Assembly (NCBI GenBank): GCA_045124135.1
Contig: JBGVLE010000076.1
Coordinates: 19,382-83,381, forward strand
From: Alloprevotella sp.
GTDB lineage: Bacteria; Bacteroidota; Bacteroidia; Bacteroidales; Bacteroidaceae
DNA: 64,000 bases
Reading direction: 5' to 3'
A model generated the notes under the pieces. The model searched no databases and had not been told where the DNA came from. It saw only the letters and a list, made by a program, of their open reading frames with translations. Each line of letters begins with the position of its first letter. Position 1 is the stretch's first letter. Both the position numbers and the translations under genes were made by a program. Shown piece after piece: positions 107-62,662 of this stretch.

Positions 107-540
107 AAGTGTGTGTTGATGACTTGTGATTTGTAGACTGCAAATTTAGGAATAAATCGACGACTGACGGCATTTTTTTGCCGACAAAGATTTATTGGCC
201 GGGTTTTTGCCGCCTCAAGTTGGCATTTGTCTCGGAAAAACGGAAAATGGTGCCGGTGGCGGATGATTGATCGGACATAGTTCATTCGTGTGGGTATATA
301 TGGTATGCGATGGGGTGGGGTGTTCAGAAAATGATGGGTCTTGGTGTGGGCATTTTGTCAAGATAGCGGCTAAAAAACGGCCTTTCTGCCCGTGATTTAC
401 CGCTCTGACCTTCCTTCCCCTTCCCAAATTGCCCTTGGCGTCGGCCTTCGTCTCGTACTCAGCGCTCCAAAACCTTACCGTGCCGCCTCGGTCCCAACCT
501 GCCGAGAATGCCATTCCGGAGAATTTTTAACCATTTTTGA

Positions 541-825
541 AGTTCAAATGGAGGGGCCTGGGGTGACGCAAATAGTTGGTTTTTTCTTCTAAAAGCCGTC
601 TGGCGCGGACGGAATGGCGGTAAAAAGTTCACAAATTCAAGATTTTCGCTCCTGTCATAAGGACCGTCGGTCGCGGAATAAGGACAGATATTACGGGGCT
701 AAGGACAATTTTTCCTGTCCTTAGCCCCGTAACGGCCTGAAAAGCACAAAAAAAGAGGCCACAGGGGGCTCTCTCTTATTTCCTACTTCAAAGATAACGC
801 CAAAAGGCGCCACGCCAAAAGACAA
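541..825 (-). repeat. Dispersed ~285-bp intergenic element, copy 1 (strand = direction of its promoter-like module)
   Basis: GTTCA(542)..GTGACG(563); unit centres at 657/678/699/720; CAAAGATA 789-796; AAAAGACAA 817-825. Confidence 0.85.
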
Positions 826-12310: not shown

Positions 12311-12597
12311 TGGTACAAAAACAGGGGTGGTGTGTGACAAAATTTATCTGAAAATCTTTTGAAAACCATCGCCGACGTCGCAGAAGCGATGGTTTTCGAC
12401 ATAAAAACGTCTTGCGTCGCTCGCGACGGCTTTTCCGACGTACGCCCATAAGGACTGTCGCCGCGGCGATAAGGACAGTTTTCTCTGTCCTTATGACAGT
12501 AAAGCACTGAATAACAATAAAAGAGGCCCCGTTAAGGGCCTCTTTTTCTTTTCTTACCTCAAAGGTAAGACCAAACGGCTGGTCGTAAAAAGACAAA
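12311..12597 (-). repeat. Dispersed ~285-bp intergenic element, copy 2
   Basis: Unit centres 12448/12469/12490; perfect hairpin 12519-12546; CAAAGGTA 12560-12567; AAAAGACAA 12588-12596. Confidence 0.85.
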
Positions 12598-12678
12598 GGG
12601 AGCGGGAGATGGGAGTGGCACTTTGGTCTCCGTCGTTGCAGGCCATGGCGTGCCGTCTCCGACAGAGTCTTTCCGTCG

Positions 12679-30061: not shown

Positions 30062-30348
30062 TGTTCACAACCGAGGGTTGAAAATGACGAAAATACCTTG
30101 ATTGTTTGCAGAAAATCATCTCCGGCAGTCGCCGTGGCCGCTCAAAAAGCCCGAAACGGCCACTTTCATCTCTTTTCTTGGGCTTGGATGCGCCTGTCAT
30201 AAGTCCGAATAATCCTGTCATAAGCCCGATTTTTTCTCTCCTTATCCCCGTAAACGTTTGAAAATGAACGAAAGTGACTCTCTCAGGGCCTTCCTCCTTT
30301 TCTCTTGCCTCAAAGATAGTTTCATTTTGGCGGAATGAAAAAGACAAA
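30062..30348 (-). repeat. Dispersed ~285-bp intergenic element, copy 3
   Basis: GTTCA 30063, ATGACG 30084; unit centres 30199/30220/30241; CAAAGATA 30311-30318; AAAAGACAA 30339-30347. Confidence 0.85.
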
Positions 30349-30522
30349 AGGCGCATCGGCGGAGGGGTGGGGCTATGTCCTTATATATAATATAGGAGCG
30401 TCTGCCGAAAAGTGACACGGCGTCACGGAAAGCGGCGAAGAATTTTACAAAAGAAAGAAAATATTATAGAAAATGTCTTTGTGGTTAAATCAAAAGGAAT
30501 AACCTTACACCTGTAAAGCAGA

Positions 30523-41479: not shown

Positions 41480-41835
41480 TGTTCACAAAAGCCGGTCGCC
41501 TGTGACGGTCTCCAACATCTTTTAAGGGTCTGCCGCCGATTTTGATATTTTGTGTCACGGTATGTGTGGGATTGTTAAAAACGCTTAACGATAATCGTAA
41601 GAGTCAAACAATCAGGACGATATGTCTTCTGAATGTTCTGAAGAACCGTTCCTGCGCCTTCAAAAGCCTGTTTTGGCGGCCCGGCATAAGGCCGGTATTT
41701 CCTGCCATAAGCCCAGGCAAAACAGTCCTTATGTCCGTAACCCCTTGAAACGCAAAAAGAGAAGCCTTTTGTGGACCTCTCTTCTTCTTTCCTGTATCAA
41801 AGATAGCCCTCATACCGTCTGGCACCAAAAGACAA
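41480..41835 (-). repeat. Dispersed intergenic element, copy 4 (about 70 bp longer)
   Basis: GTTCA 41481, GTGACG 41502; unit centres 41686/41707/41728; CAAAGATA 41798-41805; AAAAGACAA 41827-41835. Confidence 0.85.
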
Positions 41836-42121
41836 TAACCCGCCCTGTATGCCATAGCACCGCCTTTCTGCCAGGAGACAAGGCTTATGTCGTGACGTAT
41901 ATACCTGATATCCAAAAATATCAGAAGGATATACAGACCGCAGCCGCAGGCCCTCCGGGCAAAGCCTGCTCGGTTCGCGCATTGCCGGCCGTCCTTTACC
42001 AATACTTGAAACGAAACGCCTAAACCACCTTAATTCAAGTGGCTTAAATGCTTTTTCTGCTCCAAACTTTCGTTTATTCCGCCGATTTGGAGTATTTTTG
42101 CATTTCGAAAACCCCATACTT

Positions 42122-54175: not shown

Positions 54176-54235
54176 GCGGTCGTTGGGGCGCCCGGCGTGG
54201 GCGGCGCCCGGCGTGGGTGTCGGCTGCGTGTCGCT

Positions 54236-54520
54236 TTTGTCTTTTTCGCTTGCAGCCGTCAGCGTTATCTTTGACGTAGGATAAAACAAAGAGGAGGCCT
54301 TTGGCCTCTTTTTTTGTGCCTGGCGGCCCGTACGGGGATAGGGCCCGTTTTTCCTGTCCTTATGGCAGGAATTTCTGTCCTTATTCCCGCAATGTTTTTC
54401 CCTAAAGCTGTCGGTTTTCAGCGGTTCAAACTGCCGCCGCATCAGCCTGGAGGCATTCCCGAAAGCATTTCAGGCAAAAAAATGTTTAGTTTCGTCACGC
54501 TCGACCCGCCTTTCTGAACA
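54236..54520 (+). repeat. Dispersed ~285-bp intergenic element, copy 5 (inverted orientation)
   Basis: TTGTCTTTT 54237-54245; TATCTTTG 54266-54273; unit centres 54338/54359/54380; CGTCAC 54493, TGAAC 54515. Confidence 0.85.
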
Positions 54521-54555
54521 AGTCCTGCGCCACCCTCTCTTTCCCACTATACAGC

Positions 54556-60391: not shown

Positions 60392-60467
60392 TGGTGATTC
60401 GCTTGGGGTTCGAACCCAAGACCCCAACATTAAAAGTGTTGTGCTCTACCAGCTGAGCTAGCGAATC
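60392..60467 (-). tRNA. tRNA-Lys (anticodon UUU), CCA encoded
   Basis: GATTCGC acceptor stem, AGCTCAGCTGGTAGAGC D arm, loop CTTTTAA, GGTTCGAACC T arm. Confidence 0.97.
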
Positions 60468-60493
60468 AAACCGTTATTGCTGTTAAGCGAGTG

Positions 60494-60501
60494 CAAAGAT
60501 A
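60494..60501 (-). promoter_or_regulatory. Bacteroidota sigma-A -7 box (TATCTTTG) of the tRNA-Lys gene
   Basis: Matches TAnnTTTG, 26 nt upstream of the tRNA 5' end; same octamer as in the dispersed element. Confidence 0.7.
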
Positions 60502-60597
60502 GCGGTTTCGCCAGTATCTGCCAAGTGTTTCGCCGCTTTTTTTGCTTGAACTGTTGTTTTTTTTGTCAAAACGGGAAGGCGTTGCCTGTCTCTCAGG

Positions 60598-62165: not shown

Positions 62166-62377
62166 TGTTGCTATGTCTTTTTAGTGATTTCTAATGGATT
62201 GCGTTGTTGGTAAACTGGTTGTTTCGTGCAATGGGATTGAAACGGCGGCAAAGTTACGTTTTTCTCTCTAAAAGGCAAAGGTTTAGTGCCTTAAAATTTT
62301 TCGCCGTGACCCGTTGCTGCCGAATTTTGGCATAGTTGGGAAAAGGCGAAAGCCGTGTGTGGCAACGCCCAGCCGTT

Positions 62378-62662
62378 TTTGTCTTTTTGCTATCCGGCTT
62401 TTGGGCTTATCTTTGAGGTAGGATAAAAGAAGAGGAGGCCTTTTGGGGTCTCCTCTTTGTATTTCAGATGTTTACGGGGCTAAGGACAGGAAAAACTGGC
62501 ATAAGGACAGGATTTTCTGCGATACTGACAGTTTTTCTTCTCTGCCGTTTCGTCTCATTTTCATACCATTCCGCCAATTTTTTGTGCCGTGTGGCCGCTT
62601 CCGGCCGTATGGGCTGTTGAAAGATGTGGCATTGCGTCACGGTCGACCGGCGGTTTTGTCTG
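62378..62662 (+). repeat. Dispersed ~285-bp intergenic element, copy 6 (inverted orientation)
   Basis: TTGTCTTTT 62379-62387; TATCTTTG 62408-62415; hairpin 62430-62457; unit centres 62480/62501/62522; CGTCAC 62635. Confidence 0.85.

Follow-up and report, generated by a model that had tools for sequence, protein, structure and literature searches.

The phased quasi-palindromes studied here are one module of a non-coding intergenic element of about 290 bp, each copy of which carries its own predicted promoter and its own terminator-like hairpin. Six copies lie in the window, the 64,000-nt stretch of Alloprevotella sp. DNA that was analysed. We consider it, with moderate confidence, a self-contained element that is maintained by its host and in which the 21-bp-phased units serve for protein docking. 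The original prediction, which drew attention to the units, missed that they belong to an element bearing a promoter and a terminator.

Organization of the element

Copy 1 occupies positions 542–829 of the window on the minus strand (nhmmer core match C76:20210-20054, corresponding to window 829-673; alignment A1). Its array of four 17-bp quasi-palindromes spans 651–730 (units at 651–667, 672–688, 693–709 and 714–730), with 4–5 bp between neighbours and a period of 21. Re-reading of the region at 651–732 placed the ATAAG, CTAAG and CTTAG centres at 657, 678, 699 and 720, as had been claimed, and the perfect inverted pair described for this copy is likewise present, since TTACGGGGCTAAGGACA (691–707) is the exact reverse complement of TGTCCTTAGCCCCGTAA (716–732). 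On the promoter side of the array, the minus-strand reading gives a GC-rich, terminator-like hairpin with a T-run (748–781) and a promoter (789–825), in which Box A with the -33 motif (TTGTCTTTTG, 816–825) and the -7 box (TATCTTTG, 789–796) are separated by a 19-nt spacer containing a small palindrome. The distal box, GTTCA..GTGACG, lies at 542–568 on the other side of the array.

The five further arrays that had been named in the window were found at the predicted positions, each within a copy of the same element. Copies 2 to 4 have their promoters on the minus strand, like copy 1. Copy 2 (12312–12600; units 12442–12458, 12463–12479 and 12484–12500) is flanked by convergent genes, copy 3 spans 30063–30351 (units 30193–30209, 30214–30230 and 30235–30251), and copy 4 spans 41481–41839 (units 41680–41696, 41701–41717 and 41722–41738). 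The promoters of copies 5 and 6 are on the plus strand. In copy 5 (54233–54522), Box A (54235–54246) and the -7 box (54266–54273) are followed by the hairpin and T-run (54288–54316), three units (54332–54348, 54353–54369 and 54374–54390) and a distal box at about 54493–54522. The distal box of copy 6 (62375–62650; units 62474–62490, 62495–62511 and 62516–62532) is degraded.

The order of modules is thus a promoter (TTTG-N19-TAnnTTTG), a GC hairpin with a T-run, the units, a spacer of about 100 bp and the distal box, and the 5' boundary of the element is sharp. Box A has the consensus TTTTGTCTTTT(G), its 3' end supplying the TTTG at -33. A 19-nt spacer, usually with a small variable palindrome, leads to the -7 box TATCTTTG, and the terminator-like hairpin that follows consists of a purine-rich arm, a GC stem, a loop and the T-run. 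Between the hairpin and unit 1 stands TTTCAG..TTAC. Unit 1 usually reads ..ATAAGGACAG and is followed by a 5–6-nt A/T spacer, while unit 2, CTGTCCTTATGNCAGG, is separated from unit 3 by an A/T spacer of 5 nt. The post-array spacer of about 100 bp is not alignable between copies. The distal box, TTTTGTCAC-N13-TTTTGAACA, is mostly located 101–104 nt past unit 3, and about 45% of copies have a recognisable one, as against 0.16% by chance.

Sigma-A promoters of the Bacteroidota have the consensus TTTG at -33 and TAnnTTTG at -7, separated by about 19 nt. Copy 1 has TTTG-N19-TATCTTTG, copy 5 has TTTTC-N19-TATCTTTG, and the element consensus agrees. Upstream of the tRNA gene in the window (60395–60467, minus strand), the stretch 60468–60520 contains TTG-N20-TATCTTTG, that is, the element's own -7 octamer about 20 nt past a TTG; on this comparison, Box A/B fits the Bacteroidota consensus and is a predicted sigma-A promoter. 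The palindrome in the promoter spacer (798–815 in copy 1) has arms of 4–5 bp and a TTTT or AAAA loop, as in CGCC-AAAA-GGCG. Its sequence varies among copies, and between orthologues few parts of the core are less constrained.

Copy number, phasing and genomic spacing

A whole-element profile search of the 2.35-Mb, 138-contig assembly to which the window belongs found 151 distinct loci, of which about 126 are full length. Arrays contain three units (52 cases) or four (12 cases). The 21-bp period holds in these additional copies: of 171 distances between recognisable neighbouring centres, 135 are exactly 21 bp and three are 22–23 bp, so that 135 of the 138 near-21 distances are exactly 21, and the remaining distances are due to spurious extra motif matches or to 42-bp skipped units. 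It is also correct that the centre occurs in either orientation, RFF being the commonest arrangement, with RFR and FFF next. A genome-wide scan had been proposed for the 17-mer. The arrays are confined to the element, with no orphan founder arrays found elsewhere in the genome. The motif CCTGTC-N5-GACAGG alone, with a tolerance of three mismatches, shows no significant enrichment (39 matches versus 28 expected) because its arms are degenerate.

By rough gene calls, all of the loci are intergenic, and they occur in every orientation relative to both neighbours. Where the upstream gene is co-oriented, the element starts a median of 43 nt past the stop codon, and 48 of 116 copies face a convergent gene downstream. 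Given these convergent neighbours and the full range of orientations, the element is not an mRNA leader. A role for the distal box as a promoter of the downstream gene was considered and rejected, with the box present in 27 of 69 copies before co-oriented genes and in 27 of 52 before convergent genes. Replication polarity was rejected as well, as element orientation showed no relation to GC skew or to local gene strand.

The element copies are over-dispersed along the chromosome, with roughly one per 13 kb. In this fragmented MAG with its rough gene calls, the distances between neighbours on the same contig (n=72) had a median of 12.7 kb and a CV of 0.47, and only 1 of 72 (1.4%) was below 5 kb. 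Null models of three kinds, which drew random intergenic gaps, placed elements uniformly or fixed the count on each contig, gave CVs of 0.85–1.02 (minimum 0.63 in 1000 draws) and placed 33–41% of distances below 5 kb (minimum 17%). Likewise, adjacent eligible gaps were both occupied 8 times, versus 21.2 +/- 3.8 expected. The only close pair in the genome (G000:C131:70744-71311) consists of two full tandem elements about 400 bp apart in the same orientation.

Conservation between orthologues

An exact 21-period pattern scan of public genomes pointed to three MAGs, namely Bacteroidales bacterium W0P37.017, Prevotellamassilia sp. isolate 39 and Alloprevotella sp. PUUB25_bin.006. The window's own genome (G000) was compared with three sister MAGs (G050, G055 and G065), which share about 90% identity with the window and are collinear with it across elements. 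At 30 of the 31 testable loci in these MAGs, the element is present at the G000 site, mostly with a footprint within a few bp of the same length; one copy is degraded. Identity between orthologues is 0.75–0.91 in the core, which is almost without indels, versus a neutral 0.63–0.70 in the flanks and the internal spacer. By module, it reaches 0.93 in Box A, 0.86–0.90 in Box B, 0.80–0.86 in the hairpin arms and 0.82–0.87 in the units, as compared to 0.66–0.70 in flanks and spacer in this breakdown. Conservation is strongest in Box A, the -7 box, the hairpin arms and the 10-mer CTGTCCTTAT that units 2 and 3 contain.

This constraint on the core is equal whether the upstream gene is co-oriented or divergent, and therefore the promoter, hairpin and array form a unit that is functional in its own right. 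Among the orthologues, at most one doubtful flip was seen in about 60 units and one in about 25 spacers, none of them convincing. The element is thus under purifying selection and kept by the host; with sites shared between genomes and free of inversions or rearrangements, it is not currently mobile, and it does not act as a recombination switch. The elements were also considered as recombination breakpoints, and this was rejected: synteny appeared broken only where contigs end or where an unrelated repeat lies.

One difference near copy 1 is an insertion of about 360 bp in G050 (G050:C30:102377-102749, opposite window 361–375), located between nusB and the copy 1 orthologue. Part of it is about 80% identical to G000:C117:43922-44170 and recurs beside another element (L006), so that the insertion probably represents a further small repeat family.

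DNA-level and RNA-level features

Alternative RNA pairings of the units had been put forward as a further possibility, and they are not borne out as a conserved feature. An RNAalifold consensus fold of 67 copies contained 0 pairs. The three unit-internal stems are paired in 54.1% of cells, as compared to 57.7% in shuffles, and a hairpin between units 1 and 2 in 67.6%, as compared to 69.9%; covariation scores for both sets of pairings were below those of shuffles. Mutual information revealed local couplings only, namely the all-A or all-T make-up of spacers and the choice of ATAAG or CTTAT as centre. The dyad symmetry therefore resides in the consensus only, as in a recognition sequence, and is not a stem kept by compensatory change. 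Against Rfam, the tRNA was the only match in the window above the gathering threshold, and copy 5 had no match at E<=1.

The fold energy of the unit region is equal on the two strands (-17.9 and -17.4 kcal/mol). The terminator-like hairpin, in contrast, folds family-wide at -18.6 kcal/mol on the promoter strand versus -13.3 kcal/mol on the other. This bias of 5 kcal/mol is the G.U signature of RNA-level selection in the promoter direction. Where double changes in the hairpin separate orthologues, pairing is kept in 13 of 17.

The spacers between units are pure A, pure T or AnTm in 178 of 252 cases and TnAm in 3 of 252, and among mixed runs, 65 of 95 lack a TpA step, versus 11.4 expected (maximum 22 in 2000 permutations). 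Whether a spacer carries A or T bears no relation to how the flanking units are oriented. On either strand, these 5-bp stretches are A-tracts of the DNA type, although RNA stability could also explain an avoidance of UpA. Taken together, the fold, covariation and A-tract results point to a strand-symmetric DNA-level feature beside an RNA-level hairpin.

Proposed function and alternative explanations

The exact period, the lack of covariation and the A-tract spacers favour a platform on one face of the DNA over RNA helices. The original prediction had proposed a phased platform for a dimeric protein. Its helical phasing stands, while a symmetric dimer is not required: the best-kept part of the unit is the asymmetric 10-mer CTGTCCTTAT, and an asymmetric 10-mer within a pseudo-palindrome fits a sequence-specific reader that need not be a symmetric dimer. 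In the mechanism we propose, the sigma-A promoter of each copy would fire into the hairpin and U-run, which would act on the promoter-strand RNA to yield mostly a very short transcript and would stop incoming transcripts too. The 17-bp quasi-palindromes directly downstream would present three 10-bp words (ATAAGGACAG or CTGTCCTTAT), as a rule two in direct and one in inverted orientation. Placed 21 bp apart with 5-bp A-tracts between them, all of the sites would therefore lie on one side of the helix at a spacing of two turns. A putative sequence-specific DNA-binding protein may then occupy the array cooperatively on bent DNA, and array and mini transcription unit together may serve as chromosomal punctuation, providing transcriptional insulation and/or shaping local DNA topology or nucleoid organization. 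Running counter to a DNA platform, the conserved promoter points into the array, and read-through RNA containing the units is possible. A more specific role, in which the elements are regularly spaced boundaries of topological or transcriptional domains and act as sites for gyrase, a nucleoid protein or condensin, appears rather improbable.

The direction of the promoter is the starting point for another explanation, in which the element is a multicopy small-RNA gene. Here read-through transcripts with three CUGUCCUUAU/AUAAGGACAG words would act by binding or titrating an RNA-binding protein, or by folding into alternative hairpins, in the manner of a sponge RNA or of FopS. The promoter at the 5' edge of the element is canonical and strongly conserved, the hairpin has its strand-specific G.U signature, copies occur between convergent genes where an mRNA leader is impossible, and multicopy sRNA families with sigma-A promoters exist in Bacteroides (FopS; PMC11697453). 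We nevertheless judge a small-RNA gene unlikely. A strong hairpin with U7 separates the promoter from the units, there is no covarying pairing and no Rfam match at E<=1, and the units are strand-symmetric in their orientation flips, their interchangeable A and T spacers and their equal fold energies; FopS RNAs, moreover, are about 65–70 nt long, have 14 copies and differ in sequence.

A phased array could also be what remains of a non-autonomous mobile element, MITE- or REP-like, whose units were once transposase sites, whose even spacing is a footprint of target immunity and which has no present function. Arrays of ~22-bp end-binding sites and cis-immunity are established in Mu and Tn7 and may serve as a precedent by analogy, and the distribution of the element is suggestive, with about 150 copies in a four-species clade, strong full-length matches in none of about 60 congeners and 140 family genomes beyond it, and a unit word of its own in each congener that has an analogous element. 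However, all modules are under purifying selection between orthologues, and the marks of transposition are lacking. The ends share the direct word TTTTGTC, which is not inverted, so there are no terminal inverted repeats; no target-site duplication emerged over 25 offsets (best z-score 2.3); and each element has a single array. MITE-type insertion polymorphism was not seen either, the 30 occupied loci of 31 being of equal length in genomes that are about 90% identical, with the one degraded copy as the only exception. Nor did a specific transposase emerge: Y1_Tnp is not clade-specific, and rve is represented by one sub-threshold match. On balance, a mobile relic is a doubtful explanation. Far more improbable is the suggestion, made with the original prediction, that the units belong to a site-specific recombination or inversion system. 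Units 1 and 2 do form an inverted pair of binding elements around a 6-nt asymmetric spacer, and with the third, direct element the RFF layout resembles an FRT-like recombinase core site with an accessory element; centres and spacers also occur in both orientations among paralogues. Between orthologues, however, these orientations are stable, 30 of 31 sites are kept in place and length, synteny is kept apart from breaks at contig ends, and a chromosome with some 150 active sites in both orientations would become scrambled. With regard to the invertible promoters of Bacteroidales, Box A has no inverted copy, the distal box is direct, and the layout is stable in orthologues.

Whereas dispersed bacterial repeats are usually seen as selfish or structural debris, this element is selected both in place and in sequence across four species. 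To our knowledge, almost nothing is known about how chromosomes in this phylum organize their transcription units or DNA topology. If a reader protein of the phased docking array exists, about 150 defined sites per genome would be available for studying such organization in gut Bacteroidales, and if the elements should prove to be domain boundaries, they would constitute a sequence-defined bacterial insulator system in a Bacteroidales lineage. Even a modest reading accounts for a large share of the lineage's long intergenic gaps and carries a warning that the element promoters should not be annotated as gene promoters.

Comparison with known repeat systems

Literature searches found no description of this element, and several known systems share some of its features. 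Like the REP/BIME repeats of Enterobacteria and Pseudomonas, which are associated with RAYT, the element is high-copy, strictly intergenic and located at gene 3' ends, with palindromic units in alternating orientation; REP/BIME repeats are believed to be bound by proteins (IHF, gyrase) and have ties to termination and topology. In contrast to them, its units have no GTAG/CGTC tag, its palindromy is without covariation, and each copy has a full promoter and a separate terminator. Nor does it resemble a REPtron, as the RAYT gene is not flanked by the element and stem pairing is not maintained (54% versus 58% in shuffles). Correia/NEMIS of Neisseria and BOX of Streptococcus pneumoniae are likewise modular, dispersed intergenic repeats with hundreds of copies per ~2-Mb genome and carry promoter, terminator or protein-site functions. 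However, Correia repeats have TIRs and target duplications, whereas the element has neither TIR nor TSD; BOX is built of boxA-boxB(n)-boxC hairpin RNA modules rather than a fixed array of 3–4 units; and both are strain-polymorphic, while the positions of the element are orthologous and constrained. Iteron, pho-box and LytTR-type operator arrays, in which short words at 21–22 bp place proteins on one helix face, recall the layout of one inverted and two direct sites. They differ in being few loci beside a regulated promoter or origin, in contrast to about 150 arrays without fixed orientation to genes.

Two systems are closer taxonomically. The BrickBuilt minisatellite-MITE of Porphyromonas gingivalis consists of 23-nt units without spacers, 1 to 22.8 per array, between a leader and a tail with inverted ends, at 19 copies per genome (PMC4596501). 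It shares with the element an occurrence in Bacteroidales, an intergenic location, a repeat unit roughly two turns of the helix long and promoter activity (PMC4596501), the last being predicted in the case of the element. The element differs in its period of 21 bp, its A-tract spacers, its arrays of 3 or 4 units and its approximately 150 copies. The FopS sRNA family of Bacteroides thetaiotaomicron comprises 12–15 copies that produce RNAs of about 65–70 nt with a conserved 5' seed (PMC11697453). Its members are similarly paralogous and non-coding and have individual sigma-A(Bfr) promoters, but they have no sequence or architecture in common with the element. BrickBuilt and FopS are analogues of the element and not its relatives.

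Distribution and candidate partner genes

The lineage carrying the element is a four-species clade of uncultured gut Prevotellaceae. A sequence-only model of it (R1) gave strong full-length matches in only 4 of the 61 genomes sampled from the genus (G000, G050, G055 and G065) and weak partial matches in a few others; in 140 further family genomes from 35 genera, it gave nothing at E<=1e-5. Analogues of the same architecture, recognised through weak R1 matches, occur in congeners, with a TTTG-N19/20-TAnnTTTG promoter leading to a purine-rich hairpin and T-run and then to 3–5 units with a period of about 21 nt. They were found at L081, L086, L091 and L097 in G004, at L083 and L087 in G063, at L085 and L094 in G059, at L082 in G057, and at L084 and L090 in G014. 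In G004, the analogous element has only about 15–19 copies. The unit words of these congeners are species-specific, while a junction ...CAGG-ATTTT-C is common to them; examples are CTAAGCCCAGTCCAGG-ATTTT and GCAGTCGCAGG-ATTTT-CTAAG. Their distal box reads GGTTAAA..GTTAAT, and its word is also found just upstream of the promoter. Their boundary word, GTTAA, differs from that of the G000 element and stands at both ends. The G000 clade thus carries a greatly expanded variant of a genus-wide family. That the unit words differ among congeners would require either a co-evolving reader or separate amplifications.

Two gene families were examined as possible partners. A link to RAYT was rejected, as a different repeat (GGCCTGAAAGGCC-AACAAGAC...) flanks the Y1_Tnp gene (G000:C98:28597-29052), and of the 25 congeners (out of 61) with Y1_Tnp homologues, most are without the element. 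This AT-rich, RAYT-like gene of 151 aa, the genome's single copy, lies outside the window at locus L076 (G000:C98:28100-29052), and a second, unrelated repeat family (CACGGCCTGAAAGGCCAACAAGACCATAGCCCAGGGCAGAGG), with about 10 copies in the genome, adjoins it. A link to DUF6078 (PF19555) was also rejected. The family had no match in G000, G050 or G055 and only a sub-threshold one in G065. In G004, a distance of 150 nt separates one element from a short DUF6078-like ORF upstream of it, and the gaps after homologous DUF6078-like genes elsewhere contained no such element. A full-length DUF6078 gene in the same genome (L095 1477–2010, G004:C1) has an array of GGGAGTACTCCC palindromes, with a period of about 22 bp, immediately after it, an arrangement that is unrelated to the phased-unit element.
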